From Candidatus Coatesbacteria bacterium (GTDB taxonomy: Bacteria > RBG-13-66-14 > B26-G2 > WVWN01 > G020348885), in contig CP070755.1 in the NCBI GenBank assembly GCA_020348885.1, forward strand, positions 1,630,689 to 1,694,688: a stretch of 64,000 nt of DNA, read 5' to 3'. The notes under the pieces are model-generated. The model saw only the letters and a program-made list of their open reading frames with translations. It made no database searches and had not been told where the DNA came from. Both the position numbers and the translations under genes were made by a program. Below, piece after piece: positions 8,571-49,228 of this stretch. Positions within the stretch are counted from its first letter, which is position 1. The number at the start of each line of letters is the position of its first letter.

Positions 8571-8595
8571 CGACCGACCTGGACGCAAAATCGCG

Positions 8596-9169: not shown

Positions 9170-9209
9170 CGCTTTTTTATCAAGAATTCAAGGTTGACAG
9201 GGAGTACCG

Positions 9210-10556: not shown

Positions 10557-10667
10557 AACGGCTGAAACGATACGAAAACGCCGAATATTCAGTTAATACA
10601 GATGAATATGCGGGAATCGCACGATAAAAGCGGTTTCGCGGTACTGAATAAAAGTTCCTCCTACGAA

Positions 10668-10700
10668 AACCCTCGCTACGGCAGGGTTTTTGCATATATC
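10668..10700 (+). terminator. Putative rho-independent terminator downstream of the TldD/PmbA gene
   Basis: aaccctcgctacggcagggtttttgc, hairpin then T-run. Confidence 0.45.
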
Positions 10701-10776
10701 GCGTGTTAATGCATCCATGCCATACCGTGCTGCTTTAAAAAAAAGGGTTTTTTTTTAGTTTGAGGGCAATTTTCTA

Positions 10777-10805
10777 TTGACTTTTTGATAGCGTTATCGG
10801 ATAAT
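10777..10805 (+). promoter_or_regulatory. Near-consensus sigma70 promoter TTGACT-17-GATAAT, preceded by an A/T-rich UP-like tract
   Basis: ttgactttttgatagcgttatcggataat, read directly. Predicts a ~130-nt 5' leader before the RHH gene. Confidence 0.55.
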
Positions 10806-10940
10806 GGACCAAAATTGTCAGGGTTTGGCCGGGCTTCGTCCCGAACGCCAACCAAATCTTCTGACTTTCGAAGCCCCGCTAGCTAACCGGCTAAGCGGAA
10901 TAACCTGTTTCAAAAACCTAACCTAAAAAGGAGTGAAGAA

Positions 10941-11168
10941 ATGAAGAAAGCGAGAGCGGGAAGAACTAAGTCCGTTACGGTACGGTTAGACATCGAGATC
11001 AATGACCGCCTGGACGATTATTGCGCCGACACGAGGTTCTCGAAATCCTTGCTCGTGAACAGCGCCCTCGACTACTTCACTGGTTTGCCGGACGAACGCA
11101 AATTCGAAGTAATCAAGGACTACGTAATCGTCGCGAAGAAAGCCGCGCCGAAAGCCCCCGCCAGCTAA
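10941..11168 (+). CDS. Ribbon-helix-helix (CopG/Arc/MetJ-like) small DNA-binding protein
   Basis: 75 aa. The beta-strand then two helices (KSVTVRLDIEINDRLDDYCADTRFSKSLLVNSALDYF) fit RHH. AGGAG RBS. Followed by a strong terminator. Confidence 0.55.
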   Translation: MKKARAGRTKSVTVRLDIEINDRLDDYCADTRFSKSLLVNSALDYFTGLPDERKFEVIKDYVIVAKKAAPKAPAS

Positions 11169-11207
11169 CGAGCGGTTGCCAAAGCGCTATACGACGGAAT
11201 ATAAAGG

Positions 11208-11237
11208 GCCGGCAACGGCGAGTTGCCGGCTTTTTTT
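11208..11237 (+). terminator. Rho-independent terminator
   Basis: gccggcaacggcgagttgccggc hairpin plus ttttttt. Confidence 0.8.
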
Positions 11238-11314
11238 CGCGTTTTTACTCCGAATCACGAAATGGACGCGCTCTCCCACGGAATACGTTTACCGGGCAAA
11301 TAAATAGATATTAC

Positions 11315-11342
11315 TTGACATCACGATACCCTTATGATAAAT
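11315..11342 (+). promoter_or_regulatory. Sigma70 promoter TTGACA-16-ATAAAT immediately upstream of the tRNA
   Basis: ttgacatcacgatacccttatgataaat. The tRNA 5' end lies ~7 nt downstream. Confidence 0.5.
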
Positions 11343-11348
11343 AAGACG

Positions 11349-11422
<74 letters not shown>

Positions 11423-11557
11423 ATAGTTGCCGGGGCCGCTTCGACGGCCCTTTTTTAAATACGTTTAACCGGCGCATTACTTCGCGGTTTATACTCATAA
11501 TACGCGAGAATAATAGGTTTAATCCATCCCGCCCGGTACAATTAGGTCCGGGTTACG

Positions 11558-13555: not shown

Positions 13556-13601
13556 CCAGCGTACGCACTAGAGAAGTTTCGACATCTTACTTCAAACCCT
13601 G

Positions 13602-15179: not shown

Positions 15180-15517
15180 ATCCAGGTACTAGATTCTTTG
15201 CGGTCCAGCAAAGCCTCTTCTAACGAAGGAGTTTCGACTGGTACGTACGCTCAACTTACGGTATTCTAATCTCGCCGTCGCCGCATTTCAACGACAAACG
15301 GCCACCGTACGGTCGAAGTAAAACGGCGGCGGATTCGAGAATCCGGGACATCCGCCTTGCCCGGAGGCTAATACTATGTTATACGACTATACTCATATAC
15401 CTATGAAACCGCTAAAAAAAGCCGTAGAAATTGCCGACGCACTGTGCCGTAGCGAGCGACCGAGCCGTTCTTTACGTTATTAAACGGTACTCTTAGTTTA
15501 GTACACCCGGCGCTAAC

Positions 15518-18256: not shown

Positions 18257-19378
18257 ATGTCCACCGAAACTCGCGAGCTGAGGACCGAAGAGTTCAAGGT
18301 CAACATAGGCCCCCAGCACCCCAGCACCCACGGCGTCTTCCGAATGGTCAACACGATGGACGGCGAGCGCATCGTCGCCTGTGAACCCCACATCGGCTTC
18401 CTCCACCGCTCGATGGAGAAGATGGCCGAGAACCGCCAGTACATCTCCTACCTCATGATGACCGACCGAATCGACTACCTGAGCGGCCTCTTCTGCAACG
18501 AGGCCCACTGCAGAGCCATCGAGGAGTTATACGAACTGGAAGTTACCAAACGCGCTCAGTACATCCGCGTGATGCTGATGGAACTCAACCGCATCGCCAG
18601 CCACTCGATCTTCTGGGGCATCTTCGCCCTGGACCTGGGCGCCATCACCCCGTTCCTCTGGGCCTTCCGCGAGCGCGAGGTCGTGATGGACTTGCTCGAG
18701 ATGACCACCGGCCAGCGGATAACGTTCAGCTACTTTCGGCCCGGCGGCGTCGCCGAGGACCTTCCGGTGGAAGACTTCTTGCGACGGGCCAAGTTCTTCG
18801 TAAAAGACTTCCCGTACCGGGTCGCCGACTACCACCGCCTGCTAGATAAAAACGAGATATTCGTTCACCGGACCAAAGGCGTAGGCGTAATCCCGGCCGA
18901 CATGGCCGTAAACTACGGTCTGACCGGACCGAATCTGCGGTGCTCGGGCGTAGACTTCGACCTGCGTAAAGACCGGCCGTACGAATGTTACGAGGACTTC
19001 GATTTCGACGTGATTACGTACGAAGAAGGCGACTGCTACGCCCGCTATATGGCCCGTATTTACGAGATGGAAGAGTCGTACCGGATATTCAAGCAGGCCC
19101 TCGAGGGACTGCCCGAGGGCGACGTCAAGTCGCCGGATACGCCGAAGAAGATAAAACCGCCGGCCGGCGAGGTTTACGTCCGGGTCGAGTCGCCCCGCGG
19201 CGACTACGGCCTTTATATGGAAAGCGACGGGTCCGACAAACCTTACCGTTACAAGCTCCGGACGCCGTCGTTCAGCAATTTGTGCATCCTCCCGAAGCTG
19301 CTCGAGAACGCGTACCTGGCCGACATGGTCCCCATCTTTGGGTCGTTGGACGTAATACTCCCCGACGTGGACCGCTAA
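18257..19378 (+). CDS. nuoD: NADH-quinone oxidoreductase subunit D (49 kDa)
   Basis: NIGPQHPSTHGVFRMV…, ending in a conserved C-terminus. Confidence 0.92.
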   Translation: MSTETRELRTEEFKVNIGPQHPSTHGVFRMVNTMDGERIVACEPHIGFLHRSMEKMAENRQYISYLMMTDRIDYLSGLFCNEAHCRAIEELYELEVTKRAQYIRVMLMELNRIASHSIFWGIFALDLGAITPFLWAFREREVVMDLLEMTTGQRITFSYFRPGGVAEDLPVEDFLRRAKFFVKDFPYRVADYHRLLDKNEIFVHRTKGVGVIPADMAVNYGLTGPNLRCSGVDFDLRKDRPYECYEDFDFDVITYEEGDCYARYMARIYEMEESYRIFKQALEGLPEGDVKSPDTPKKIKPPAGEVYVRVESPRGDYGLYMESDGSDKPYRYKLRTPSFSNLCILPKLLENAYLADMVPIFGSLDVILPDVDR

Positions 19379-22736: not shown

Positions 22737-23210
22737 ATGAAACCGTTCGCAATAACGCTCTTTTTGATCGGCATCTCGGCGGCAACAGCGGCCAACGAAG
22801 CGGGTTGGGACGTGGAACGCTGGGGCGTTCACTTTACGATACTATTCAACGATGAGCACGACGAATACGATAATTGCTCGGTCTGGCGCGGCAATGACGT
22901 TGAGTACTATCTGATGAAATTCGATACGCCCGACCCGGAGTTCGCCCGCGAGGTCCATATGAAGTCGGCGTCGCTAGCAGAAGACGCGATACTTTCCGAA
23001 AGGGAAGTGGACGAGGAAACGGAACGTTCGGGTTTCGTCGCCGGTTTAGAGACGGAATACGCGTACGATGACGGGGAGTATAGAGAGACGGCACGTTACC
23101 TGAGCGACGGAGAAACGTGCTTCGCCCTGATATTCTCATGCCCGGTCGACGGTTGGGACGACAACGAGTTCTACCGCGACGACTTCTTTACGTCGGTGAG
23201 TAAGTACTAG
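22737..23210 (+). CDS. Secreted hypothetical protein (signal peptide), first of three tandem operon-embedded secreted proteins
   Basis: Start 2 nt after the nuoK stop. Signal peptide MKPFAITLFLIGISAATAAN. Acidic body. Confidence 0.55.
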   Translation: MKPFAITLFLIGISAATAANEAGWDVERWGVHFTILFNDEHDEYDNCSVWRGNDVEYYLMKFDTPDPEFAREVHMKSASLAEDAILSEREVDEETERSGFVAGLETEYAYDDGEYRETARYLSDGETCFALIFSCPVDGWDDNEFYRDDFFTSVSKY

Positions 23211-23738
23211 GTGATGAAGGTAATTACGACGTTCTTCCTCCTGACAGCGACAGCAGCGACGGCGGGGCTCGCGGGAGTTGATTTCGTACGTTACGACGAC
23301 GCCGCCGGCGCGTTCTCTATATCGCTACCGTCAGGTTATACGTTATCCAAAAGCGGCGCTTACCCTCGGTACTTCAGCTGGGCCGACGATAATATAGGAC
23401 TAACGTTCGTCTCGGTGAACTGGGCCGACGGCGCACCGCTAACGGCCGACGAGGTTAAGGAAGCATACGAGAGTTATTTAGGAGTCGAGTCCGACCTAAA
23501 CTCGCGGGAGACGATTGTACCCGACGACCTGCTTCCCGTGTACGGCGCCGACGACGGACTCCGGGGACGTTACTACATCACGGACGGCGCCGAAGAAACG
23601 TGCTACCGGGTTTCTTTCTTGGACCGGCGTGACCGGGTTTACACGTTTATAATCGCCGTACCGGCGGCGACAGAAGAAGAAACGTTGGACGTCATCGAAA
23701 CCGTACAGAACTCGGTAATCTTACTAGAGGGAGACTGA
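23211..23738 (+). CDS. Secreted hypothetical protein, second of the triplet
   Basis: Signal peptide. Weak similarity to the next ORF (VRYDDAAGAFSISLPSGYTL versus VTVSDDAGFTVELPEGFEI). Start abuts the previous stop. Confidence 0.55.
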   Translation: MMKVITTFFLLTATAATAGLAGVDFVRYDDAAGAFSISLPSGYTLSKSGAYPRYFSWADDNIGLTFVSVNWADGAPLTADEVKEAYESYLGVESDLNSRETIVPDDLLPVYGADDGLRGRYYITDGAEETCYRVSFLDRRDRVYTFIIAVPAATEEETLDVIETVQNSVILLEGD

Positions 23739-23740
23739 CC

Positions 23741-24289
23741 GTGAGAACGATATTCTTTTTAACCGCACTGGGGCTGGCCGCTTTCGCGCCCGCCGCCGCG
23801 ATTTCATACGTAACCGTTTCCGACGACGCCGGTTTTACGGTAGAATTACCCGAAGGCTTCGAAATCGCTTCCGAAGTAGCCGAAGACCCCGTAATCCGGG
23901 AATTAACCGAAGGTAAACCGTCGGTCGTTTCCACGTACGTATGGGAAGGCTCCGAGCTCGAAGGTATGGGCTTCGCCGTCGTACGTATCGGCGGCGGCGG
24001 GGTAGCGCCTGATAAAATGGAATCCTTCGTTCACGAGCGCCTTAACGCCGAAATGATGCCCTATAAGGTAACCGACCTGGGACTCACCCACGCCAGGATA
24101 ACCGAAATAGGGGCCGACTCGGGTAACAGCGTCCAGTACACGGCCGAGATCGAAGAAATGGTTTTGAAGGTGAACGTATACTACTTGCAGAAAGGTAACG
24201 CCAGCTATTTGGTTATTATCGGCTGGCCTTTAGACGCCGGGTTCGCCGGCGCCGGTCAGCACATAGAAAAAACGTTCAAGTTGGAGTGA
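23741..24289 (+). CDS. Secreted hypothetical protein, third of the triplet
   Basis: GTG start 2 nt after the previous stop. Signal peptide MRTIFFLTALGLAAFAPAAA. Confidence 0.55.
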   Translation: MRTIFFLTALGLAAFAPAAAISYVTVSDDAGFTVELPEGFEIASEVAEDPVIRELTEGKPSVVSTYVWEGSELEGMGFAVVRIGGGGVAPDKMESFVHERLNAEMMPYKVTDLGLTHARITEIGADSGNSVQYTAEIEEMVLKVNVYYLQKGNASYLVIIGWPLDAGFAGAGQHIEKTFKLE

Positions 24290-24335: not shown

Positions 24336-26273
24336 ATGTCTATAATCCCGATTCTCGCCGTAATAGTCCAATTCGCGCCGCTGGTGGGTTTCGCCGTCGC
24401 CCTCTTCTGGGGCAAACGGATGGGCGAGCCGCGAGCCAGCTTTGTTCCCGTCGCGATGATGGGCGTAAGCGCCCTCGCGAGCATCCCGTTATTGGCCGGC
24501 GTCCTGTCCGGCCACGGCGGGCTCTTTACCGTCGAGTGGATAAACTCCGGTGCGATAAGTATAAACATCGGCTATATGCTGGACAACTACAGCGCCGTAA
24601 TGACGGCAACCGTCGCGATCGTCGCGTTCCTCATCCATCTCTACTCGATAGGCTACATGCATGGTGACCCGAGGTTCGGCCGGTTCTTCGCGTACCTGAA
24701 CCTCTTCGCGTTCTCGATGCTGGGGCTGGTGACGGCTTCGAACTTTATGCAACTCTTTATCTTCTGGGAGTTGGTCGGCCTCTGCTCGTACCTTCTTATC
24801 GGCTTCTGGTACGAGAAGAAATCGGCGTCCGACGCCGGCATCAAAGCCTTCATCACCACGCGAACCGGCGACGTCGGGTTTATGCTCGGGATATTCCTCC
24901 TCTTCGCTCTGACCGGCTCGATGGACTACGACAAGATATTCCACGCCGTCGAGGGTGGCGCCATCGGCCCGACGTTGATTACGGCGGCGGCGCTCCTCCT
25001 CTTCTGCGGCGCGATAGGGAAATCGGCCCAGATACCGCTGCAGGTGTGGCTCCCGGACGCGATGGAAGGCCCGACTCCCGTCAGCGCCCTCATCCACGCC
25101 GCGACTATGGTCTGCGCCGGCGTGTATATGATCGCACGGGTATTCCCCATCTTCGAAGCGGCGCCTACGGCGCTCTTCGTCGTCGCCATCGTCGGCGGGA
25201 CCACAGCGCTCCTCGCCGCGACCATAGCGTTGGTACAGATTGACATCAAGCGGGTGCTGGCGTACTCGACGGTCAGCCAACTTGGGTATATGATACTGGC
25301 CCTTGGGGTCGGCAACCCGGTGGCGGCCTTTTTCCACCTGGTTACCCACGCGTTCTTCAAGTCGCTCCTATTTCTCGGGTCCGGCTCGATGATACACGGG
25401 ACAGGCACCCAAGACATCCGGGAGATGGGCGGTCTGGCACCCAAGATGAAGACGACGACGTGGACGTTCGTTGTCGGGGCGCTGGCGCTGGCAGGCGTAC
25501 CGCCTTTGGCCGGTTTCTTCTCCAAGGACGAAATCTTGGGCTCCGTCAGCGACTACGGCCACTGGTGGCTAATAGTCTGCGGCTTTCTGACGGCTCTCTT
25601 GACGGCCTTCTACATGTTTCGGGCTATATATATCTCCTACGCCGGGAAACCGCGGACGGCGGGCGCCGAGCACGCACACGAGTCACCGCCGGTTATGACG
25701 ATACCGCTGATCGTCCTCGCCGTATTCTCGGTCACGGCCGGGTGGATATTCTTCGTCCCCGGCGGCTTCGGCGCGTTCTCGGGCTTGAGCGTTTTCCTTC
25801 ACCACGAGCACGGGATTAACGTGGGGGCGATGGGCGCGTCGGTAATTCTGGCCCTCTCAGGTATCTTCATCGCGACGATAATCTACCTCTGGAAGTGGGT
25901 GGACAACGAGCAGCTCTACAAGATATTTCGGCCCGTCGCTTTCGTGCTCGAACGCAAGTACTTCTTTGACGACGTTTACCACGGTTTGCTCGTCCCCGGG
26001 TTCGTCCTCTTCAGCCGCTTCTGGGGCGCGTTCGACCTGTGGGTAATAGACGGCATCGTCAATCTGTCGGCTTTCATGACGGTCCTGGTCAGCCGCTTCG
26101 AAGGTTGGTTCGACCTGGCAATAGTGGACGGGGTTGTTAACCTACTCGGCTGGATTACCAGAACGTTCGGCGCCGGGTTCCGTAAACTTCAGACTGGGTA
26201 CGTACAGGAGTACATAATCATCCTGGGCGTCGGCGCCGTCGCCGTGATACTGGCGGCACTTGCGATATTGTAA
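24336..26273 (+). CDS. nuoL: NADH-quinone oxidoreductase subunit L
   Basis: 645 aa with antiporter-like subunit motifs (…WLPDAMEGPTPVSALIHAATMV…). Confidence 0.92.
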   Translation: MSIIPILAVIVQFAPLVGFAVALFWGKRMGEPRASFVPVAMMGVSALASIPLLAGVLSGHGGLFTVEWINSGAISINIGYMLDNYSAVMTATVAIVAFLIHLYSIGYMHGDPRFGRFFAYLNLFAFSMLGLVTASNFMQLFIFWELVGLCSYLLIGFWYEKKSASDAGIKAFITTRTGDVGFMLGIFLLFALTGSMDYDKIFHAVEGGAIGPTLITAAALLLFCGAIGKSAQIPLQVWLPDAMEGPTPVSALIHAATMVCAGVYMIARVFPIFEAAPTALFVVAIVGGTTALLAATIALVQIDIKRVLAYSTVSQLGYMILALGVGNPVAAFFHLVTHAFFKSLLFLGSGSMIHGTGTQDIREMGGLAPKMKTTTWTFVVGALALAGVPPLAGFFSKDEILGSVSDYGHWWLIVCGFLTALLTAFYMFRAIYISYAGKPRTAGAEHAHESPPVMTIPLIVLAVFSVTAGWIFFVPGGFGAFSGLSVFLHHEHGINVGAMGASVILALSGIFIATIIYLWKWVDNEQLYKIFRPVAFVLERKYFFDDVYHGLLVPGFVLFSRFWGAFDLWVIDGIVNLSAFMTVLVSRFEGWFDLAIVDGVVNLLGWITRTFGAGFRKLQTGYVQEYIIILGVGAVAVILAALAIL

Positions 26274-26304
26274 GTAAAGCCGTTAAAATAGGAGGTTGGT
26301 TACA

Positions 26305-27906
26305 ATGAAAACGCGATTAGTTTTAATCTTTTCGATAGCTTTATTAGCGCTTTCCGGCGTTTTCATAGGTTGTGACAACAACGTTACGGGGCCTGACGAC
26401 GGCGATGGGGATGGTAACGGCGACGGGGACGAAGAAAAACCGGAATTATCGAACCCGAATCCACCAGACGGCGCAACGGGCGTAGATTTCCTTTTGGATT
26501 CCGTAAGTTGGGAATGTACGAACCCCACCGGTGCCAACCTTACGTTCGACGTCTACTTCGGCGAATCGGGTTCGCCCCTAGACTTAATAGCTAACGATAT
26601 ACCTGATACAAAATGCCCAATAGGACCGCTAGAAGAGAAAACCGGTTATCAATGGCAAGTTACCGTAGATTACGGAGAAGGTCTAACCGAATGGGGTCCC
26701 GAATGGGAGTTCGAAACAGCAGAGTCACCTGGTTGGCATATAGAAATAGTCGATTATATCGGTGAGTTTTATCCTTTCTACGACATTTCACTTACTATAG
26801 ATAGCGGAGATAATCTGTATATGAGTTATTATTCTATGGGAGACCATGGTTTAAAATACGCATACACGAGTGGGCGAGGTTGGACGACCGAAATCGTCGA
26901 TACGGATGGTTATATGCCCGGTCAAGGTTCTTCTATTGAACTAGATATTAACGGCGACCCGCATATAAGCTATGTAACCGCCCTGGATCTATCCGGACAA
27001 GAAATCAGGTGCGCCCGTAAAACGGGGCTAACGTGGTCAATTGATAATATCGCAAGCGGCTATTTATGGGGTACTTCCCTCGTTTTAGACGGTTCGTCTA
27101 ACGAACATATTACATATTACGAAGAGGGAGGTGGGAATCCTAGAATATTTTACACTTACAAAAGCGGTTCCGGGTGGATTAGAAAAGAGGTATATGCAGG
27201 TATCTCCCACAACTCGCGTAAATCGATAGGGTTTAATAAGGACGGTAAACCCGTTATTTGTTTCAACCCCTTTAATGACATAGACTACGACTTAAGGTTT
27301 GCTACTTGGAACGGTTCAAGTTGGGATATCGAAGTGATAGATAGCGGTACTTATCATATATCCTGGCAAGCCGAGATGGTCATCGACGCCCAAAAGAACC
27401 CTCATATCGTATATAACGACGGTTTAAGTTATCCCGAACATCTGATGAAGTACGCGCGTAGAAATGGGTCTTCGTGGATAATAGAAAATATAGAAGTAGA
27501 TAGGTGGGAAGCTAGGCCTTGGGTTTGCGATTTATACCTCGATGGTACTGGCAAACCACATATAACCTATACAACCCGCGAATACGTTTCAGGTAATTAC
27601 CGATACGAATTAAAATACGGTTATTTCGACGGCACGTCTTGGTCCAATGAACTAGTCGAAGAAGCGGAAGTAGGTTCGAATAGATTAGTATTGGACGCTC
27701 AAGGATACCCCCATATCTTATATTTCGATGAAAACACTTATGAGTTGAAACACGCTTATTACATACCGGAAAGCCGTTTTGATACGTCGGCGCTGCGAAT
27801 AAAAGCCGTACCTCATACGAAACAAAAAGACGATAAAACGAAAGCGAAATTAAAAGAAGGGGAACGGAAGAAAGGTAAAGATTTAGCGTCGGGTATCGTC
27901 GAATAA
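26305..27906 (+). CDS. Lipoprotein with an N-terminal FN3-like domain and a ~9-10-unit tandem-repeat (beta-propeller-like) region, inserted between nuoL and nuoM
   Basis: Lipobox LSGVFIGC, GGAGG RBS. Repeats of ~45 aa share the pattern [DN]G.PHI.Y…LKYA…G.SW..E.V. Confidence 0.6.
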   Translation: MKTRLVLIFSIALLALSGVFIGCDNNVTGPDDGDGDGNGDGDEEKPELSNPNPPDGATGVDFLLDSVSWECTNPTGANLTFDVYFGESGSPLDLIANDIPDTKCPIGPLEEKTGYQWQVTVDYGEGLTEWGPEWEFETAESPGWHIEIVDYIGEFYPFYDISLTIDSGDNLYMSYYSMGDHGLKYAYTSGRGWTTEIVDTDGYMPGQGSSIELDINGDPHISYVTALDLSGQEIRCARKTGLTWSIDNIASGYLWGTSLVLDGSSNEHITYYEEGGGNPRIFYTYKSGSGWIRKEVYAGISHNSRKSIGFNKDGKPVICFNPFNDIDYDLRFATWNGSSWDIEVIDSGTYHISWQAEMVIDAQKNPHIVYNDGLSYPEHLMKYARRNGSSWIIENIEVDRWEARPWVCDLYLDGTGKPHITYTTREYVSGNYRYELKYGYFDGTSWSNELVEEAEVGSNRLVLDAQGYPHILYFDENTYELKHAYYIPESRFDTSALRIKAVPHTKQKDDKTKAKLKEGERKKGKDLASGIVE

Positions 27907-28635: not shown

Positions 28636-30114
28636 ATGGACTTCCCGATTCTCACCGTAACGACATTCGCGCCCATAGTCGGGATGATTATAATCCTATT
28701 AATGCCCCGCAAACTCGAGAACCTGATAAGGGGAACCGGGGTCTTCTTCTGCGGCGTCTCGCTCGTATTATCATTGGCGATGCTCTTCATCTATAAGGCG
28801 GACATGGCCGGTATAATGCAGATGGAAGAGCAGTACCGGTGGATTCCCACCATCGCCGTCAGCTACCACGTGGGCGTCGACGGGCTGTCGTTCCCGCTCT
28901 ACATTCTAACGACGGTCCTCTCGTTCCTCGCGGCGATAGCCTCGTTCTCGGTCAAGGAGCGGGTCAAGGAATACTACGCCCTCTACCTCCTCCTGGTAAC
29001 GGGGATGTTGGGCGTCTTTATCGCCCTCGACCTCTTCCTCTTCTACGTCTTCTGGGAAGTTATGCTGGTACCGATGTACTTCCTCATCGGCATCTGGGGG
29101 GGAGAACGACGCGAATACGCGGCCATCAAGTTCTTCCTCTACACCCTTCTGGGCAGCGTAGTAATGCTCCTTGGGATTCTCGCACTTTTCTTCACGTCGA
29201 CGCCCCACACCTTCGATATGATGGCCCTGATGGCCCAGAACGGAAACTTCGTCCACGGGTTCCAGATAATCGTGTTCATGGCTTTCTTCATCGGATTCGC
29301 GATAAAGGTACCCGTCTTCCCGTTCCACACGTGGCTTCCCGACGCCCACGTGGAAGCGCCGACGGCTATCTCGGTCCTCCTCGCCGGGATACTCCTTAAA
29401 ATGGGCGCTTACGGGCTCCTACGGGTAAGTTACCCTATACTGCCCGAAGGGGCCGTCTGGTTCGCCGTGCCGCTTGCGGTCTTGGGGATAATAAACATAG
29501 TTTACGGGGCGCTCGTCGCGATGGCCCAGAAGGACCTCAAGAAGCTCATCGCGTACTCGTCGGTGAGCCACATGGGGTTCGTACTCCTCGGAGCGGCGGC
29601 GATGACGGCCACGGGTTTCAACGGCGCGATGATGCAGATGCTCGCCCACGGGATAATCACCGGCGGGCTCTTCCTCATGGTGGGCGTCCTCTACGACAGG
29701 ACCCACGACCGTATGATCGAGCACTACGGCGGGCTGGCCAACAAGGTCCCGATATTCGTCGGCGTCTTCTCGGTCACGATGTTCGCGTCGCTGGGTCTGC
29801 CGGGTATGGCCGGGTTCGTGGGCGAGTTCCTCAGTTTCGCCGGGACGTTCCCGGTATACAAATGGGCCGTAATCGCGGCGGCGCCGGGCGTGGTCATAAC
29901 TGCGGGTTACTTCCTCTGGACTATCCAACGAATGTTCCTGGGCGAGTTCAATACCCAGTGGGAAGGGCTTACGGATATGAGCGCCCGCGAGCTCGTAACG
30001 ATGGTCCCCCTAATCGTATTGATGATCACGTTCGGCGTATGGCCGCGGCTGTTAATCGACCTGATGAACCCGGCTATGGCTAAACTGGCCGAGTTCATGG
30101 CCACGTTCCGTTAA
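28636..30114 (+). CDS. nuoM: NADH-quinone oxidoreductase subunit M
   Basis: 492 aa with an NuoM/ND4 motif (…FHTWLPDAHVEAPTAISVLLAGILLKMGAYG…). Confidence 0.92.
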   Translation: MDFPILTVTTFAPIVGMIIILLMPRKLENLIRGTGVFFCGVSLVLSLAMLFIYKADMAGIMQMEEQYRWIPTIAVSYHVGVDGLSFPLYILTTVLSFLAAIASFSVKERVKEYYALYLLLVTGMLGVFIALDLFLFYVFWEVMLVPMYFLIGIWGGERREYAAIKFFLYTLLGSVVMLLGILALFFTSTPHTFDMMALMAQNGNFVHGFQIIVFMAFFIGFAIKVPVFPFHTWLPDAHVEAPTAISVLLAGILLKMGAYGLLRVSYPILPEGAVWFAVPLAVLGIINIVYGALVAMAQKDLKKLIAYSSVSHMGFVLLGAAAMTATGFNGAMMQMLAHGIITGGLFLMVGVLYDRTHDRMIEHYGGLANKVPIFVGVFSVTMFASLGLPGMAGFVGEFLSFAGTFPVYKWAVIAAAPGVVITAGYFLWTIQRMFLGEFNTQWEGLTDMSARELVTMVPLIVLMITFGVWPRLLIDLMNPAMAKLAEFMATFR

Positions 30115-42704: not shown

Positions 42705-42728
42705 ACGGCCGCCGAAGCGGCCGCTTTT
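42705..42728. terminator. Bidirectional terminator between convergent genes
   Basis: aaaacggccgccgaagcggccgctttt. Confidence 0.6.
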
Positions 42729-42770: not shown

Positions 42771-43322
42771 CTAATCGTCCGCCTCAGTAAGGCCGCCGAA
42801 TCCGTCACCTGGAGGGGACCCCACCGCCGGCGACCACCTCTCGACGTACTCGTCTTCCAACACGCGGTGAATTTCCATCCTCTCTATCTGTTCTACGCCG
42901 GAAACATAATTATACTTTGCTTGCAGGTTAATAATCATCCTCGTATCGACGTCCGGCTCGAGCCGCTTACAGACTAAAACTATACTCCCGTTCCTCGTAG
43001 AAGCTTCCCCTTCATACACCTTATCATCGGGCGTCGTTATCCTCGTGGTGTTCCTGCCCATCTTCTCTATCACGGTTCCGGCCAGTATAGGAACGTATGC
43101 TATTTTCGTATATTCCTCGCGTTCGACCATAATTGCCCTGTCGTAAAGCGCGAACGTCCCTGTGAAAGAACGACCGTCTTTCGCTTCGACCGCCGCTTCG
43201 ACGATTATCTCCGCGTACGCGTCGTACGGCCGGGGAATATACTCTTCGTTATGGACTACGGCGGCCGACGCCGTCGGTATTATCGCACAAACGACAGCTG
43301 CGAAGAATAATATACTTCTCAT
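42771..43322 (-). CDS. Secreted hypothetical protein
   Basis: Signal peptide MRSILFFAAVVCAIIPTASAAVV. Confidence 0.5.
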   Translation of the reverse strand: MRSILFFAAVVCAIIPTASAAVVHNEEYIPRPYDAYAEIIVEAAVEAKDGRSFTGTFALYDRAIMVEREEYTKIAYVPILAGTVIEKMGRNTTRITTPDDKVYEGEASTRNGSIVLVCKRLEPDVDTRMIINLQAKYNYVSGVEQIERMEIHRVLEDEYVERWSPAVGSPPGDGFGGLTEADD

Positions 43323-43332
43323 AAAAACCCCT

Positions 43333-44265
43333 CTACCTTTTATGAAGAGCTATCTCGCCGTCTTCGTCAATGTAAACCGCATAGATACTTTCTTTCGCGT
43401 CCAGCGCCAGCGCAACGGAAGTACTGGGCCTTTCCGAAATCCTCAGTTCCGTACCTTCGCTAAGCGACATATCGCTCTCGACCGTATAATACCGCATATG
43501 TATATACTGGTCATCCCGGTCCACGTACGCGGCGAGCACTTCGTCGCCGATCACCGCAAGAGCCGGTTGGGCCGCCAACCGATCTTCGGTAGGGTATTCC
43601 TTAACATAAGTTAACTTTGTATCCTTGACCGACCCTTTGATCTCGTACGTCGTTAAAGAAAGCTTGCCCTTCTCGTTTACCCACGCCACGACCAGGACGT
43701 TGTCCACGACGCCGATAGAACACGGGTAGTTCGTTTCGCATTCGGGCAATTCTATTATATTTTTCCTCTTCGGCCGGGATTTGCCGAGGTCGTACACCGC
43801 GACCGTAACTCTGGAATCCTTCTGGTCCACGTAACCGATATAACCCCTCGTCCCGCCTATAGCGACGCTGGCGCCGCCGGAGCTCTTTTTGCCGACCCCT
43901 TTCTTATCGACGAATTTGAAATCGCCGGCTGATTTTATTTTGTAGTAAACAAGGTCGACGTCCCCGTCGGAGTCGGCCCAGGCCATCAACAATTTATCGT
44001 CCGATATAGACAACCCGAGAGCATTCGCCGTGCGGTCGCTAAGGCTTTCAGACTCGTCGAGCCACAGATCACCGCTCCCCTTCAGCTCGAAAAGGCCGAA
44101 CTTTAACGTCAGGTCGGGCCGGGCCCACGCGATATAAACATCGCCGTCGCAAACGGCTACTGCAGGGGTGCCGGGGCTTTCCTCGTTACTTTCGTACGTC
44201 ATAGCCGCGAAAGCGGCACCCGTAAACGTTGAAAGAACGGTAAGTATAAGACTTATACCGCGCAT
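43333..44265 (-). CDS. Secreted hypothetical protein with repeated beta-strand motifs (possible beta-propeller)
   Basis: Start trimmed to the Met MRGISLILTV, which has a GGAGG RBS. Repeats such as LLMAWADSDGDVDLVYY, VLVVAWVNEKGKLSLTTYE, VLAAYVDRDDQYIHMRYY. Confidence 0.5.
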   Translation of the reverse strand: MRGISLILTVLSTFTGAAFAAMTYESNEESPGTPAVAVCDGDVYIAWARPDLTLKFGLFELKGSGDLWLDESESLSDRTANALGLSISDDKLLMAWADSDGDVDLVYYKIKSAGDFKFVDKKGVGKKSSGGASVAIGGTRGYIGYVDQKDSRVTVAVYDLGKSRPKRKNIIELPECETNYPCSIGVVDNVLVVAWVNEKGKLSLTTYEIKGSVKDTKLTYVKEYPTEDRLAAQPALAVIGDEVLAAYVDRDDQYIHMRYYTVESDMSLSEGTELRISERPSTSVALALDAKESIYAVYIDEDGEIALHKR

Positions 44266-44396
44266 CGCTTTTCGCCTCCCAAAAAGGTTGTCAACTACGG
44301 GATAATAAGATAGATATAAAGCCGTGTCAAGGCCGACGGCCGAGAAGCCCGTCTTTAAAGCGCCGAGCCCGCAGACCGGGGAAACCCAACAAACGT

Positions 44397-44627
44397 CTAA
44401 AACGAAACCGTGCCTATCCCCGGACCAAAAGCGCAAGAACACCCGCAGCAGCTTAAAACCGCGTTGACGATACCGAGCGCTAAACAAACCTGGCCGAAGG
44501 ATTTACAAGCCCTTTCCGGTTTACTCATATATATTATACCGAGTATTATCCCGAGAATCGGTATAAAAAAGGAAAGGATATAGAACAACCATTCCGGGCC
44601 GGGCGGTTTATCTCCCCGTTCGTTCAT
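44397..44627 (-). CDS. Small membrane protein, paralogue array member 1 of 6
   Basis: PPGPEWLFYILSFFIPILGIILGIIYMSKPERACKSFGQVCL: shares the PEP.WLFY.LSF..P..GI..G.IY..K…FGK.CL core. Confidence 0.6.
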   Translation of the reverse strand: MNERGDKPPGPEWLFYILSFFIPILGIILGIIYMSKPERACKSFGQVCLALGIVNAVLSCCGCSCAFGPGIGTVSF

Positions 44628-44656
44628 CGAAATTCGACCTCCAAACGCCGGTTATG

Positions 44657-44908
44657 CTAATAGCCCGTAGATATTGGTATCGCGAATAACGTAAGGCCCA
44701 CGGCCAGATATATAATCACGACAGCCATTATGAATACGACGGTGATTGCAAACCGGGCGACAACCGTAAACAGGCATACCTTACCGAAATCCCTGCAAAC
44801 CTCCGTCTGCTTACCCAGGAATATCGCGCCGATAACTATACCGGCCACCGGTTCGATAAACGACAGCACGTAAAACAACCAGGCCGGTTCCGGCGGTCTA
44901 TATTCCAT
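44657..44908 (-). CDS. Small membrane protein, paralogue array member 2 of 6
   Basis: MEYRPPEPAWLFYVLSFIEPVAGIVIGAIFLGKQTEVCRDFGKVCL…. Confidence 0.6.
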   Translation of the reverse strand: MEYRPPEPAWLFYVLSFIEPVAGIVIGAIFLGKQTEVCRDFGKVCLFTVVARFAITVVFIMAVVIIYLAVGLTLFAIPISTGY

Positions 44909-44921
44909 AACTACCCCTTTA

Positions 44922-45257
44922 TTAAAGCGTAGCTATACATACCCCCGTGATCGCCGACTCTATGGAAGAAATCACGGCCAATAAAAACACCATTATAATC
45001 AAGTAATAAACGATACAGACCAATATTACCAATATCACTATTAATACGTATAGGACCCACACGATGATTACGGCCAATATAAAGAGTAATAACAGGGCTA
45101 TCGGTATCGCTGCGAAGATGAGACACGTTTTCCCGAACCGCTTTAGCCCTTCGTCGGCTTTAGCCAGATAAATAACGCCGATAACTATCCCGGCGACCGG
45201 GACGGCAAAACTCAGGACGTAAAACAACCACGCCGGTTCCGGGGGTCTTTCTTCCAC
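44922..45257 (-). CDS. Small membrane protein, paralogue array member 3 of 6
   Basis: MEERPPEPAWLFYVLSFAVPVAGIVIGVIYLAKADEGLKRFGKTCL…, with a very hydrophobic I/L/V-rich C-terminal tail. Confidence 0.6.
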   Translation of the reverse strand: MEERPPEPAWLFYVLSFAVPVAGIVIGVIYLAKADEGLKRFGKTCLIFAAIPIALLLLFILAVIIVWVLYVLIVILVILVCIVYYLIIMVFLLAVISSIESAITGVCIATL

Positions 45258-45267
45258 AACCCCTCCT

Positions 45268-45654
45268 TTATAATATAGCCGGTAGTAATAACGACCCGAC
45301 TACCGACGCCGCGGGCGAAACCGCGGTCGCCAACGCCGTTATTATTATCAACAGGATAACGAGAAAGTAGAACGCGAAAGCCATAAAAATAACCAAGACG
45401 TACACGATGATTACGACCAATATATAAAGCAGGAACAACACAATCGGTATCGCAGCGATGATTAGACAAGTCTTGCCGAACGTCTTCAGTTCTTCGTCGG
45501 TCTTCGTAAGGTAGATAACACCTATCACTATCCCGGCGATGGGGACAATAAAACTAAGGATGTAGAACAACCATGCGGGTTCCGGAACTTGCTCGACGAT
45601 ACCGCCATTTGCCCTCGTTTCCTTAATGGACGTCGCCTTAACGGTTTTTCCCAT
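45268..45654 (-). CDS. Small membrane protein, paralogue array member 4 of 6
   Basis: …VPEPAWLFYILSFIVPIAGIVIGVIYLTKTDEELKTFGKTCL…. Confidence 0.6.
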   Translation of the reverse strand: MGKTVKATSIKETRANGGIVEQVPEPAWLFYILSFIVPIAGIVIGVIYLTKTDEELKTFGKTCLIIAAIPIVLFLLYILVVIIVYVLVIFMAFAFYFLVILLIIITALATAVSPAASVVGSLLLPAIL

Positions 45655-45677
45655 AGTCGTATCCTCGCAAAACGCGG

Positions 45678-46025
45678 TTACGCGATGCCGGCCAGCGCGC
45701 CGATAAACGCGTACTCGCCGCCGCTAAGCCCCGCGAACGCTATAACCCCTATCATTAATACGACGTAGAAGACGAAGTATGCGACGGCAAACAGGATGTA
45801 GATGTAGATGCATAGGCAATATAAAAGGATAGGGATTATGGCCGCGATTAAGCAGTTTTTCCCGAACCGCCGGCATTCCTCGTTTGGTTTACCCATATAA
45901 ATCGCGCCGATAACTATCCCGGCTATCTGTACGAAAAACGAAAGTACGTAGAACAGCCACTCGGGTTCGGGCGGCATTTCCGTCGTCGCGTTCGTCTTGC
46001 GTACAGGGCTTCTATCTTCCGTCAT
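45678..46025 (-). CDS. Small membrane protein, paralogue array member 5 of 6
   Basis: …MPPEPEWLFYVLSFFVQIAGIVIGAIYMGKPNEECRRFGKNCL…. Confidence 0.6.
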   Translation of the reverse strand: MTEDRSPVRKTNATTEMPPEPEWLFYVLSFFVQIAGIVIGAIYMGKPNEECRRFGKNCLIAAIIPILLYCLCIYIYILFAVAYFVFYVVLMIGVIAFAGLSGGEYAFIGALAGIA

Positions 46026-46125
46026 TACATCCTCACAGTCTAGCCGCCGTGCTTTTAGGGCGGAACTCCCGCGGGTAACCCGGTCGAATTACCCACGAAC
46101 GGGAATCCACACGTATTCGAAACGG

Positions 46126-46353
46126 TTATCCGAAAAATTCGCCGGCTCCGCCCCAGAGGAACAACCCGGCCCAGATTAACGAACCGGCGCAGACCAGTAC
46201 CAAAGCTACTATAGCCAACCAGATACAAATTTTACCCGATCGGCGGTAATCCGCTTCGGCGTTGGTCTGGGCCACGACGCCGAAAACAAGGCCGAAAAAC
46301 GGGAACAAGAATGAACCGACGTAACATAGATAACGGTGCTTAGGGGGCGCCAT
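46126..46353 (-). CDS. Small membrane protein, divergent paralogue array member 6 of 6
   Basis: MAPPKHRYLCYVGSFLFPFFGLVFGVVAQTNAEADYRRSGKICIWL keeps the Y..SF..P..G...G helix and a GK.C motif. Confidence 0.45.
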   Translation of the reverse strand: MAPPKHRYLCYVGSFLFPFFGLVFGVVAQTNAEADYRRSGKICIWLAIVALVLVCAGSLIWAGLFLWGGAGEFFG

Positions 46354-46423
46354 TTCGCTCCTGATGTTAGACTTCTGCGGATATTCCCGAGTTTAATCCT
46401 TCCCTGATAAATACGTAATAACG

Positions 46424-46906
46424 CTATTTTCGTTTCTTACGGTCGGCCAACGGCAAGTAATACTCCACGAAATCGATAACGTCGTCCCTGTTCTCTTTCG
46501 CAAACCGCAGGTTCATCCCACGGAACGAATCGAGCCGCGACGCGTACGTGAAGGTCGAAAGCATTACGCCCATCTTGTCCGCGTAGTAAGACCGGAAGTA
46601 ATCCCAACCTCGCCTGCGTTTCGCGAACAAGACCCTAACCTCCGCCCCCGAACCGTCCAACCGGTAGTACGACGGGAAGAAGTGGTTATATAAAGATAGA
46701 ACCAATATCGCGGCTCCTAATACGCCGACGAACCAATAACCGGCGGCGACGCCGACCAAAACACCGGAAAGTAGGACTAGTATAACGGCGAAGATCGAAC
46801 GGACCGGATATGCCAGAAGCGGATAGACTGACCACTCGAGCGAACGCGGAGCGCCCGAAGCCGCCGCTTCGCTTCCCTTTTCCTCATCCGTTTCAAACGA
46901 ACTCAA
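46424..46906 (-). CDS. Membrane protein with two N-terminal TM helices and a ~90-aa C-terminal soluble domain (bPH_2/YdbS-like architecture)
   Basis: Hydrophobic segment AVILVLLSGVLVGVAAGYWFVGVLGAAILVLSLY, then a soluble tail. Overlaps the upstream gene by 14 nt. Confidence 0.4.
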   Translation of the reverse strand: MSSFETDEEKGSEAAASGAPRSLEWSVYPLLAYPVRSIFAVILVLLSGVLVGVAAGYWFVGVLGAAILVLSLYNHFFPSYYRLDGSGAEVRVLFAKRRRGWDYFRSYYADKMGVMLSTFTYASRLDSFRGMNLRFAKENRDDVIDFVEYYLPLADRKKRK

Positions 46907-48701
46907 AACCCTCGACCTCGGACGTTTTCACGTCAATAACCTCGCCGTCGACATCGACGCCGAAAGATGTTTCACTTTTACCCCGTACCTTCCCGGGTAC
47001 ACCCTCGACAGTTTCGCCGCCGGATAGGTAGAAACGCACCGGGCGGCCGTTTTCGGAAGCGAACGCGACGGCGGAACGGAGCATCTCAGCCGTCGGCACC
47101 GCCGACGAACGTGGTACAGGTACGTCCGGCGCAGTATCGCCCCGGAAAAGCCGCGCCCTGTTACCCTTTCTCGGTTCTCGCCAAGCGTCCAAGGTAGCGG
47201 GTAAAAAGCCGGCCTCGATTAATCTTCCGTAAATCGTTTCGTAGTCGGACGCTGGTATCCTGAAACCGCATAGGTCCACCGGCTTCCCCAACTCGCCGGT
47301 TAACTCGGTTACTTTCGCTATCTCCTCCAACCGCGTTGCGTCCTTGGCCGCCAGAAACGTACCTTCGACGAAACCCACTTCACCGTAGCGTTCGGCCCAA
47401 TCGTCCAACGAGAACACCAGGTTCTGAGGCAGTTCCTTCGCCGACCTGTCCGCCAGAAACCGTTTAATCTCGTCCGCTGGCAGGCCGTCGTCGAGCGCCC
47501 GGTAAAAGGATTCTCTGCCGATTACGTACGTCAGGTAATGGCCCGAAGACCTCAAGTCGGCGAACGCCTCAAGCTTCAAACGCTCGTCCTGACCGATATC
47601 GGCCGGTACCTGTACCTCGAAGTTGCCTCCCACGTGGAAAACGTTACTGTCGGTCGGCTCGTTCCGCGATACCCCGTCTTCGATATCCGAAACCCTGCTA
47701 AGAACCAAATCGCCGTTTACGAAACCGGCTTCCAATATCCCGACGACGAACAGCGCGCACGCGACCCGCCCGGCCGTTTCCGCACCCGTTTCGCCGTTGG
47801 CTCGCCGGGCAACCCGTACCAGATACGAATAGCGAAACCATTCGCCTTTTGGGTGTTTCCTTAACGCGAAAACGGCGGCCGCCGCGGCTCCACCAGCCCC
47901 GGTCGGTACGTTAGATAATAACGTTATCGACAATCCCGGGAACCCCGATAACACATCAGCCAGATAATCCGGGTTTCCGGTCAGTTCCCCTCCTCTTCGA
48001 ACTACGGCTAGTCGAACTAAAGCGTAATTTACTAGCATATCCAACCTGCTGGCGCCGAACGTCGCGAACACGTCGTAAAGCGGCGGTTCTTCCTCGTCCA
48101 CCGACATAAGCGGCATTATACGTCCGAGCGAACGCCTCGATACCAAACCCGTTTTCGTAAGAGGTATCGGCCGTTTAAGGGTCTCGGCCCACAGCGTAGT
48201 AAGGTCGACGACAGCCGAAGCGGACGAGAGGTTAATCGGCGTATCCGGCGCCTTGACCGACGGTAGTTTATACGAACGGGCCAGCCCGGCGGCGAGCGTT
48301 TCCATGAGTTCCAACGGGACCCTCGGTCGGCCGAGAGTCGTGTCCTTCACTGCAAGCCCGCGGGAAGCCAGCGTCTCGCCGTAAAGCCCTCCCGCTGCTT
48401 TATCGAAATACGCTTTGCCTACGATATCCGCCGTCATCTCGAGGGTGATGAGCGCCAGGAGTTTATACCTGTCGGCGCGGCCTATCCCGTCTATCAGAAC
48501 GTCGAAAGGAGCTAGGGCCAGCGCGGACGGGATTTCTTCGAGTAAACGCGCCCGGGACGCGAAAGAGCTATCGAGACCTAGATGGTCGGCTATGGCTTTC
48601 AACCGGGCAAGGTCCATCGCCTGCAGCGATTGCGCCAATTCTACCTTTTCCGGCGTTTCGGGCATAGACTCCATACTACCATCGCGACGACAACCGCGCA
48701 A
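46893..48701 (-). CDS. Large soluble hypothetical protein (602 aa), first gene of the minus-strand operon
   Basis: Long ORF with coding-like composition and no recognisable catalytic motif. Confidence 0.5.
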   Translation of the reverse strand: MRGCRRDGSMESMPETPEKVELAQSLQAMDLARLKAIADHLGLDSSFASRARLLEEIPSALALAPFDVLIDGIGRADRYKLLALITLEMTADIVGKAYFDKAAGGLYGETLASRGLAVKDTTLGRPRVPLELMETLAAGLARSYKLPSVKAPDTPINLSSASAVVDLTTLWAETLKRPIPLTKTGLVSRRSLGRIMPLMSVDEEEPPLYDVFATFGASRLDMLVNYALVRLAVVRRGGELTGNPDYLADVLSGFPGLSITLLSNVPTGAGGAAAAAVFALRKHPKGEWFRYSYLVRVARRANGETGAETAGRVACALFVVGILEAGFVNGDLVLSRVSDIEDGVSRNEPTDSNVFHVGGNFEVQVPADIGQDERLKLEAFADLRSSGHYLTYVIGRESFYRALDDGLPADEIKRFLADRSAKELPQNLVFSLDDWAERYGEVGFVEGTFLAAKDATRLEEIAKVTELTGELGKPVDLCGFRIPASDYETIYGRLIEAGFLPATLDAWREPRKGNRARLFRGDTAPDVPVPRSSAVPTAEMLRSAVAFASENGRPVRFYLSGGETVEGVPGKVRGKSETSFGVDVDGEVIDVKTSEVEGFEFV

Positions 48702-48859: not shown

Positions 48860-49228
48860 ATGCCGGAAAACGAAGAGCGAACGGCCGAAGACCTGTTGGC
48901 GCCTTGCGGGCTCGACTGTGGCGAGTGCCCCGCGTACGTTGCTACCCGGGCCAACGACCCGCGGGCTCTAGCTCGAGTCGCGGAAGAGTGGTCCCGCGCG
49001 TTCAACTTCGACGTAACGCTCGAGGAAGTAATCTGCGACGGGTGTTTAAACGATAGCGTACGTAAATACGCATACATTAAAACCTGTGGCGTACGACCGT
49101 GCGCCTTAGCCCGGGGCGTCCGGACGTGCGCCCACTGCGACGACTTCGGCTGCGATACCCTAACCGAGTTCTTCAATAACGTCCCGAGGACGAAGGAGTT
49201 ACTCGAAGCCATTCGCGACAAGTTATAA
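48860..49228 (+). CDS. DUF3795-like Cys-rich small protein (putative zinc/Fe-S binding)
   Basis: CGLDCGECPAY…CDGC…C…C…CAHCDDFGC: eight or more Cys in a DUF3795-like arrangement. Confidence 0.55.
   Translation: MPENEERTAEDLLAPCGLDCGECPAYVATRANDPRALARVAEEWSRAFNFDVTLEEVICDGCLNDSVRKYAYIKTCGVRPCALARGVRTCAHCDDFGCDTLTEFFNNVPRTKELLEAIRDKL

Follow-up and report, generated by a model that had tools for sequence, protein, structure and literature searches.

The subject of this analysis is a gene cluster on the minus strand of a 64,000-nucleotide stretch of DNA (the window) from a Candidatus Coatesbacteria bacterium (contig CP070755.1). Ten co-directional open reading frames (ORFs) lie between positions 42771 and 48701, and the ORF list places all of them at the coordinates given by a first-pass annotation, which had described them as one dedicated operon of uncharacterised envelope proteins. 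We found that the strictly conserved unit at this locus is a pair of genes. One encodes a protein that resembles the p52 subunit of the transcription factor TFIIH and ends in a β-barrel, the other a small membrane protein, here termed PH2TM, with a hairpin of two transmembrane helices and a pleckstrin homology (PH)-like domain. The overlap of the two genes suggests that they are translationally coupled. The features of the locus are the following.

46893..48665, minus strand: p52-like large gene, 590 amino acids (aa) from an ATG, as the identical public protein is annotated
46893..48701, minus strand: longest ORF of the large gene, 602 aa from a TTG at 48701
47307..47624, minus strand: Helicase_C_3 domain of the large protein, residues 348-453 of the 590-aa form
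46896..47093, minus strand: predicted C-terminal Sm/Hfq-like β-barrel of the large protein, residues about 525-590 (model and Foldseek)
46424..46906, minus strand: PH2TM gene, 160 aa, TTG start at 46906
46126..46353, minus strand: small hairpin membrane protein type 1, 75 aa
45678..46025, minus strand: small hairpin type 2 copy 1, 115 aa
45268..45654, minus strand: small hairpin type 2 copy 2, 128 aa, with a long hydrophobic tail
44922..45257, minus strand: small hairpin type 2 copy 3, 111 aa, recent duplicate of copy 2
44657..44908, minus strand: small hairpin type 2 copy 4, 83 aa
44397..44627, minus strand: small hairpin type 2 copy 5, 76 aa
44302..44330, minus strand: sigma-70-like promoter before the secreted genes, TTGACA-17 nt-TATTAT
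43333..44265, minus strand: secreted repeat protein, 310 aa from the signal-peptide ATG, lineage-specific
42771..43322, minus strand: secreted 183-aa protein with signal peptide, lineage-specific
42706..42723, both strands: bidirectional intrinsic-terminator hairpin, common to the convergent MoxR-M23-bactofilin cluster

The gene order, the ribosome-binding sites (RBSs), the signal peptides, the bidirectional terminator and the 14 nt by which the large gene and the 160-aa gene overlap, all described in the first-pass annotation, were borne out. The start of the 160-aa gene is preceded by GAGG...GAGGG, and the intergenic gaps after this gene measure, in order, 70, 100, 23, 10, 13, 29, 131, and 10 nt. 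On the plus strand, genes for MoxR, a peptidase M23 and bactofilin run convergent to the ten-gene region, and both the ORFs and the perfect GC hairpin CGGCCGCCGAAGCGGCCG at 42706-42723, with a T-run on the plus strand and TTTTCG on the minus strand, agree with the proposed convergence on a shared terminator. A functional link to the bactofilin/M23/MoxR cluster was dropped because this neighbourhood exists only in the lineage of the window. A scan of the region from 42.0 to 49.5 kb against Rfam gave no match at E ≤ 1.

The large protein is 100% identical to a protein from a Candidatus Coatesbacteria metagenome-assembled genome (MAG) that is named helicase-associated domain-containing protein at NCBI. 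It matched Pfam Helicase_C_3 (PF13625) with 68.5 bits compared to a cutoff of 34.2 (E about 7e-19) at residues 360-465 of the 602-aa ORF. The same domain was matched in 11 of 11 aligned relatives, and the family alignment revealed a conserved PQN..FSL..W motif in this region. The NCBIfam model of the XPB helicase (NF045503) scored 32 bits compared to a cutoff of 610, and just its positions 20-154 were matched. A superfamily 2 (SF2) helicase core was not found in the large protein, as there was no ResIII, Helicase_C or ERCC3_RAD25_C match; the earlier statement that no enzymatic motif is recognisable in it therefore holds and extends to the helicase core. A search of the PDB with the profile of the 11 relatives gave weak matches to residues 169-241 of yeast Rad25/XPB and to residues 323-404 of yeast Tfb2, the latter with an E value of 0.19. 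The Pfam Tfb2 family (PF03849) did not match the window protein at E ≤ 1; weak matches were obtained for four of the 11 relatives (best E 3.1e-4), and the protein P0247 has a "faint" precomputed match. Word-indexed homologue searches had returned 9-11 relatives of the large protein, and it was an exhaustive search of representatives that exposed the wider family: the exhaustive profile search gave 2954 matches to the superfamily at E ≤ 1e-3, only about ten clusters of which are full length.

The AlphaFold2 (AF2) model of the large protein was of moderate quality, with a predicted local distance difference test (pLDDT) value of 63.7 and values of about 70-85 for residues 1-330 and 525-590. When this model was compared with the PDB by Foldseek, all of the top 15 matches were p52/Tfb2 chains of TFIIH. 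They came from independent structures, yeast as well as human, with E values between 1.5e-6 and 1e-3, probabilities of 0.84-1.00, alignments spanning about 530 columns and TM-scores of just 0.13-0.24; the N-terminal domains of XPB ranked after them. The C-terminal 65 residues were modelled as a helix followed by five strands with a pLDDT of about 80, and this barrel matched Hfq with a probability of 1.00, TM-scores of 0.62-0.83 and root-mean-square deviations of 1.6-3.2 Å. At the sequence level, the barrel showed no match to LSM or WYL and a weak match to Rof in the PDB profile search. The C-terminal domain by which p52 binds p8/Tfb5 was not found, the C-terminus of the window protein being modelled as the Sm/Hfq-like barrel instead. 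Judged from the profile matches, the large protein is homologous to the clutch domain shared by p52 and the XPB N-terminus, and its predicted overall structure resembles that of p52. This homology points to nucleic-acid machinery. The profile check of the 602-aa protein thus removes the label "uncharacterised", and the idea of an anonymous envelope protein is contradicted by the clear Helicase_C_3 domain, the NCBI name and the p52-like model. In TFIIH, XPB is recruited by a pseudo-symmetric dimer of two domains with a common fold, namely the p52 clutch and the N-terminal domain of XPB (PMC6422496).

As had been claimed, two hydrophobic helices precede a soluble domain in the 160-aa protein PH2TM. 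Its AF2 model, based on an alignment of 63 sequences, reached a pLDDT of 90.5 and consists of a strand (23-27), helices 34-55 and 58-71, six more strands and a C-terminal helix. All of the top 30 Foldseek matches belonged to the PH superfold, with probabilities of up to 0.99 and E values of only 0.01-1; SSRP1-N, Pob3-N, the PH domain of APPL, PTB and Rtt106 were the leading ones. The N-terminal strand stands before the first transmembrane helix and completes the PH sheet. Since the PH domain and strand 23-27 share the K/R-rich side of the transmembrane hairpin and no signal peptide is present, the PH-like domain should be cytoplasmic. According to the model and the charge distribution, PH2TM should therefore be an inner-membrane protein with a transmembrane hairpin at about residues 34-71 and a cytoplasmic PH-like domain. 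The family comprises at least 82 homologues, none of which has a Pfam domain, and no model for it exists in Pfam (2025) or NCBIfam (2026). Residues W25, W101, D126 and R129 are invariant in the family alignment, within the SRLDSFRG motif. Matches to bPH_2 (PF03703) were obtained for none of the 63 family members at E ≤ 1, the window protein included, and those to bPH_6 (8 of 63, best E 0.021) and YcxB (3 of 63, best E 0.089) were all below threshold; a PDB sequence search with the PH2TM profile gave chance-level matches only. The comparison with bPH_2/YdbS proteins made earlier is thus right with respect to the architecture, as two transmembrane helices are followed by a PH-like fold, but not with respect to family membership. 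The model of this protein has a confident PH-like fold, and the protein falls into no Pfam or NCBIfam family.

Downstream of the pair lie six small genes whose description as paralogues is supported by the protein alignment and by repeats in the DNA. The six proteins align with invariant L, S, G, G and C residues and have the consensus PPEPxWLFYxLSF..P.aGIv.G.iY..K..e..r.FGK.CL. They are also detectable as direct repeats at the DNA level; for example, 44922-45257 shares 77% nucleotide identity over 189 nt with 45397-45585. The relatives at loci L001 and L015 carry five small genes rather than six, and in L015 the closest match of the 44922-45257 copy is the orthologue of the preceding copy. 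Being 77% identical to its neighbour and having no orthologue in the five-gene relatives, this copy is a recent duplicate. In distant loci the small gene next to PH2TM is in every case the type-1 orthologue, and wherever small genes follow PH2TM, one type 1 gene is succeeded by one to five type 2 genes; in the window, type 2 has expanded to five copies. The best Pfam matches of the small proteins stayed below threshold (DUF3681, E 0.0076, 17 bits compared to 24.3; DUF4190, E 0.14, 12 bits compared to 35). We propose that the small hairpin proteins are frequent but dispensable membrane cofactors.

The last two genes encode secreted proteins. The 310-aa protein has a Sec signal peptide, the sequence GGGAGG 8 nt upstream of its gene, and about 5.5 repeats of roughly 48 aa, which were aligned from hand-chosen segments and are not reported by self-BLAST. 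Its description as a secreted, repeat-containing product with its own RBS agrees with these features. The 183-aa protein is likewise secreted as proposed, carrying a Sec-type signal peptide. Neither the 310-aa nor the 183-aa protein matched a family in Pfam or NCBIfam, and sequence searches of the PDB with both gave matches at chance level only.

The only long intergenic gap of the region, 131 nt at 44266-44396, lies before the 310-aa gene and contains TTGACA-17-TATTAT, which matches the promoter consensus at 11 of 12 positions. The two hexamers are conserved in four relatives. In an alignment with three relatives, one of them with only about 60% protein identity, CTTGACAC, TTAT(T/G)AT and their spacing are kept and most of the spacer has diverged. 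The secreted genes are present only in the lineage of the window (the window itself, L001-L005, L015, and L053) and absent at every distant locus where the upstream genes persist. At two of these loci, L007 and L009, a convergent gene is called next. Because the secreted genes have their own conserved promoter and are missing from the distant loci, the evidence favours two adjacent transcription units and not a single envelope operon, and it excludes the secreted pair from the conserved module. We therefore treat the region from 44.33 to 42.77 kb as a separate lineage-specific unit, into which transcription from upstream may read through.

Scans of genomes and metagenomes yielded 82 PH2TM loci, which form 42 clusters at 90% identity; the narrow alignments used for these scans bias the census toward carriers of the WDxF.SYY and YADxxGVxL motifs. 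In 15 clusters, a p52-like gene is located directly upstream of PH2TM (gap -26 to +44 nt) and small hairpin genes are located downstream. Another 4-5 clusters (L023/L034, L032, L025, and L029) have the p52-like gene upstream and no small genes; of these, locus L032 is truncated by the end of its contig. PH2TM was also found between yicC and rnr with overlapping start and stop codons (13 clusters, including L043, L057, L061, L069, and L084), between rph and recJ (seven clusters, including L040, L049, L052, and L058), and ahead of a cluster for an ASKHA "MutL" ATPase and a DUF6754 membrane protein (two clusters). The identities of the yicC/rnr and rph/recJ neighbours were verified with Pfam. In the last context, distant PH2TM homologues (L011-L014, about 8000-16000; one example is from a TARA ocean contig) head a conserved eight-gene cluster composed of PH2TM, a 109-124-aa protein, the ASKHA "MutL" ATPase (PF13941, about 600 aa), a 375-aa protein, the DUF6754 membrane protein and finally three ORFs (218-284 aa) that have no Pfam match and are hydrophobic in L011.

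The p52-like gene and PH2TM are adjacent in about 20 divergent clusters, in which the identity of the large protein goes down to 20-30% and the flanks differ, and two to six small hairpin genes accompany the pair in fifteen of these about 20 lineages. A start/stop overlap or near-abutment of the PH2TM gene is retained in every context. Close relatives are uninformative on coupling, since their synteny extends far beyond the region and reaches unrelated neighbours. The co-occurrence proposed in the first-pass annotation, namely that of the large protein, the two-helix protein and the small paralogues, was thus found in distant lineages with differing flanks, and the pair is tightly coupled. PH2TM is, however, also encoded next to yicC/rnr, rph/recJ and the ASKHA ATPase genes, where the large protein is missing. 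The notion of a dedicated module has to be narrowed further, because p52-like relatives without the two-helix gene exist in XPB operons and the pair also exists without the small paralogues. As to its association with the envelope, the pair and the small paralogues do recur, but the secreted genes do not belong to the module and the large protein is p52/XPB-like.

Two lineages, those of L025 and L029/L030, carry a divergent XPB helicase gene about 200 nt upstream of the pair; in these loci (L025, 1-8364) the pair and the divergent XPB gene directly follow the cell-division cluster murB-ftsQ-ftsA-ftsZ. The more distant p52-like relatives that could be placed (L026-L028) are all encoded directly after an XPB helicase gene, without PH2TM. 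The one in L026 (6001-8475) is an 824-aa protein with the Pfam domains TP_0021_N and Helicase_C_3, whose gene overlaps the XPB stop by 4 nt. All p52-like proteins with a PH2TM partner have the barrel, since their matches reach the end of the profile, whereas the three partnerless proteins stop at profile positions 441-505.

In Zixibacteria-type lineages (L007-L010, L016-L022, L024, L035-L042, and L060), a gene for an S-adenosylmethionine (SAM)-dependent methyltransferase (~221 aa, Methyltransf_11/25) is divergent from the p52-like gene and lies about 100-160 nt upstream of it. In the window lineage, a DUF3795 gene (48860-49228) occupies this position. The methyltransferase was dropped as a candidate member of the module because it is absent from the window lineage, L023/L034 and L025. 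In a Zixibacteria MAG (L009/L010, 1-5231), the module adjoins genes for an ApeA-HEPN protein, a Ser/Thr kinase and a phage-type integrase; this stretch resembles a defence or mobile island at the edge of the module.

The explanation that we favour, with a probability of roughly 0.5, is that the locus comprises two units, of which the first encodes a membrane-tethered p52-like scaffold. Gene context and predicted folds suggest that the most likely function of the pair is that of a membrane anchor tethering a nucleic-acid-handling scaffold. Unit 1 (about 48.7 to 44.4 kb, minus strand) would have the translationally coupled pair as its core. Its first gene would provide the scaffold, composed of an N-terminal helical region rich in winged helices, the Helicase_C_3 domain and the C-terminal Sm/Hfq-like barrel. 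At the inner face of the cytoplasmic membrane, PH2TM would serve as the docking site of this scaffold, probably via the Sm-like barrel, which is the likely docking element because barrel and PH2TM are gained and lost together. The partner of the clutch-type domain could be the homologous N-terminal domain found in an XPB-type translocase or a second copy of the clutch-type domain itself, and the winged-helix and Sm-like parts could bind nucleic acid; the outcome would be a membrane-tethered complex handling DNA or RNA. Unit 2 (about 44.33 to 42.77 kb) would encode the two lineage-specific proteins secreted via Sec from its own promoter, outside the conserved module. We infer the physical interactions, the tethering to the membrane, the nucleic-acid substrate and the XPB partnership in the genome of the window from these contexts and folds. 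As the PH2TM gene also overlaps with RNase R/YicC and RNase PH/RecJ genes, gene context and predicted folds further suggest a general role of PH2TM as a membrane adaptor for nucleic-acid enzymes. A more far-reaching version, in which PH2TM is an unrecognised, widespread anchor family for RNase R/YicC, for RNase PH/RecJ and for a p52 scaffold working with XPB, and the module a membrane-bound relative of the eukaryotic XPB-p52 subcomplex, is possible but doubtful.

Several observations weigh against the tethered-scaffold explanation. The pLDDT of the large protein is only 63.7, falling below 50 in the Helicase_C_3 region, and the global TM-scores to p52 are low (0.13-0.24). Neither the 64-kb window nor the DNA up to about 6-8 kb around any other class-A locus contains an XPB helicase gene, and the ASKHA ATPase/DUF6754 context shows no evident link to nucleic acids. 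The interaction between the barrel and the PH-like domain is deduced from co-occurrence in a small sample, and the motif patterns by which the loci were collected bias that sample. Finally, compact genomes may pack unrelated genes tightly.

The last point leads to another explanation, according to which PH2TM has a general housekeeping function in the membrane and is encoded beside p52-like and RNase genes for no other reason than operon packing. The genomes are indeed compact and PH2TM occurs in at least four unrelated gene contexts, but the start/stop overlap or near-abutment is retained everywhere, the partners are repeatedly nucleic-acid enzymes, and among p52-like proteins the Sm-like barrel co-occurs perfectly with PH2TM, which makes this explanation fairly unlikely. 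Even less probable is that all ten genes form one dedicated module whose products act together at the cell envelope. The co-directional arrangement with short gaps and one terminator, the fact that 9 of the 10 products are membrane or secreted proteins, and the full synteny in close relatives would fit such a module. This synteny, however, includes unrelated neighbours and is hence uninformative, the secreted genes are gone from the distant core loci and preceded by a conserved promoter, and the homology of the large protein is with XPB/p52 domains rather than with envelope proteins.

The large protein might alternatively be a membrane-sequestered regulator, i.e., a winged-helix factor with an Sm/WYL-like ligand domain as in PafBC, which PH2TM holds inactive and releases upon an envelope signal sensed by the small hairpin proteins. 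This would account for the tight coupling of the large gene to a membrane protein gene followed by variable small membrane proteins, and the model does have a winged-helix-like N-terminal region and an Sm-like barrel, with PafBC among the Foldseek matches (E 2.4e-3). Nevertheless, p52/Tfb2 outrank PafBC by three orders of magnitude, the probability of the PafBC matches is 0.28-0.35, no WYL or helix-turn-helix (HTH) Pfam match was obtained at E ≤ 1, the family descends from partners in XPB operons, and the pair exists without the small proteins; we consider a sequestered regulator rather unlikely. Only a very small chance is left to a peptide-export or immunity system similar to leaderless-bacteriocin clusters, with the small paralogues as cargo or immunity proteins. 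Such a system is called to mind by a PH-domain membrane protein followed by an expanding array of small hydrophobic proteins, and PH-domain membrane proteins (the YdbS/YdbT-like DdE/DdF) are implicated in the transport of enterocin DD14 (PMC8657885). The small proteins of the window, however, are integral hairpin or multi-transmembrane proteins of 75-128 aa with a conserved loop and not amphipathic peptides of ~44 aa, the module has no ATP-binding cassette (ABC) transporter and no bPH_2 member, PH2TM lacks small proteins in most contexts, and the p52-like protein would be left without a role. Just as improbable is an anti-phage defence or mobile-element cassette, as might be suggested by the variable copy number of the paralogues and by the ApeA-HEPN, protein kinase and integrase genes beside the Zixibacteria module in L009/L010. 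None of the ten proteins matched PADLOC-DB 2.0 at E ≤ 1 and no PHROG match was significant, scans of 2.9 million viral contigs with the PH2TM and p52-like alignments revealed no relatives, and the chromosomal position is stable among relatives. Moreover, L009-related lineages keep the same methyltransferase neighbour, which indicates vertical inheritance.

The components of the locus are of known kinds, namely a Helicase_C_3/p52-like protein, a PH-like membrane protein and small hairpin proteins. What the locus adds is a bacterial p52-like subfamily with an Sm-like barrel and an obligate membrane-anchored PH-like partner. This partner belongs to a family new to Pfam and NCBIfam, and in other phyla its gene is wedged among genes for RNA- and DNA-degrading enzymes. 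The function of bacterial XPB helicases was still called elusive in a 2026 review (PMC13024598), and a 2012 paper stated that no p52 homologue had been found in bacteria (PMC3353954). In the incomplete portion of the literature covered here, we found no paper on bacterial p52-like proteins coupled to a membrane PH partner. If the tethering is true, a single small adaptor would bring nucleic-acid processing to the membrane in several uncultured phyla, and the pair would offer a simple two-protein system for studying p52-type clutch domains outside TFIIH. If the module is a relative of the XPB-p52 subcomplex, bacterial XPB and p52-like proteins would for the first time be placed in a concrete cellular context. 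If the tethering is wrong, the annotation is still corrected, in that the ten genes do not make up a single envelope operon and a separate lineage-specific unit encodes the secreted proteins.

Elsewhere in the window, the plus strand carries a complex I (nuo) operon (NuoD 18257-19378, NuoL 24336-26273, NuoM 28636-30114). It is interrupted at 22737-24289 by adjacent ORFs of 157, 175, and 182 aa and at 26296-27906 by a 536-aa ORF, all without Pfam match. Judged from their N-termini, the three shorter ORFs look like secreted paralogues and the 536-aa ORF appears lipoprotein-like; the latter lies in the stretch of lowest GC content of the window (0.458 compared to about 0.58 around it). A second low-GC stretch (0.47-0.51) extends from 10000 to 17500 and contains genes for a sulfatase-family protein (11558-13555) and a PMT_2-like glycosyltransferase (15518-17548), as well as, on the minus strand, a 525-aa ORF without Pfam match whose N-terminus suggests a membrane-bound protein (13602-15179). 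This stretch may be a surface-modification island.

Of the known systems, TFIIH p52/Tfb2 is the one with which the large protein shares its central Helicase_C_3/clutch fold and, in its model, an arrangement in which a helical N-terminal region precedes the clutch. Unlike p52, it ends in an Sm/Hfq-like barrel in place of the p8-binding domain and lacks a Pfam Tfb2 match; the TFIIH partners p34, p44, and p62 are absent, no XPB gene lies nearby in the window segment, and the gene is coupled to that of a membrane protein. The helicase-associated proteins of XPB operons carry the same NCBI name and are homologous over profile positions 5-10 to 496-505 (L027, L028) and 206-441 (L026). They differ in lacking the C-terminal barrel, PH2TM and the small hairpin genes, whereas the module of the window lacks the helicase. 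With Hfq/Sm proteins the C-terminal 65 residues have in common, according to the model, a helix and a five-stranded bent barrel superimposing within 1.6-3.2 Å. In contrast to Hfq/Sm and to the WYL-type domains of PafBC, this is a single domain terminating a 590-aa protein, and it has no LSM or WYL sequence match. The small hairpin proteins resemble DUF4190, DUF3681 and DUF5684 in size, in the succession of a first transmembrane helix, a short charged loop and a second transmembrane helix, and in their glycine-rich helices; their matches lie well below the Pfam thresholds (E 0.008-0.14), however, and the window family has its own signature and two subtypes. PH2TM, in turn, shares with bPH_2, bPH_6 and YcxB proteins a transmembrane hairpin followed by a PH-like β-sandwich with a C-terminal helix. 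It differs from them in staying below every Pfam threshold and in its own W...W...SRLDSFRG signature, and from bacterial PH membrane proteins in general in the extra strand before the first transmembrane helix and in having genes for nucleic-acid enzymes as neighbours.

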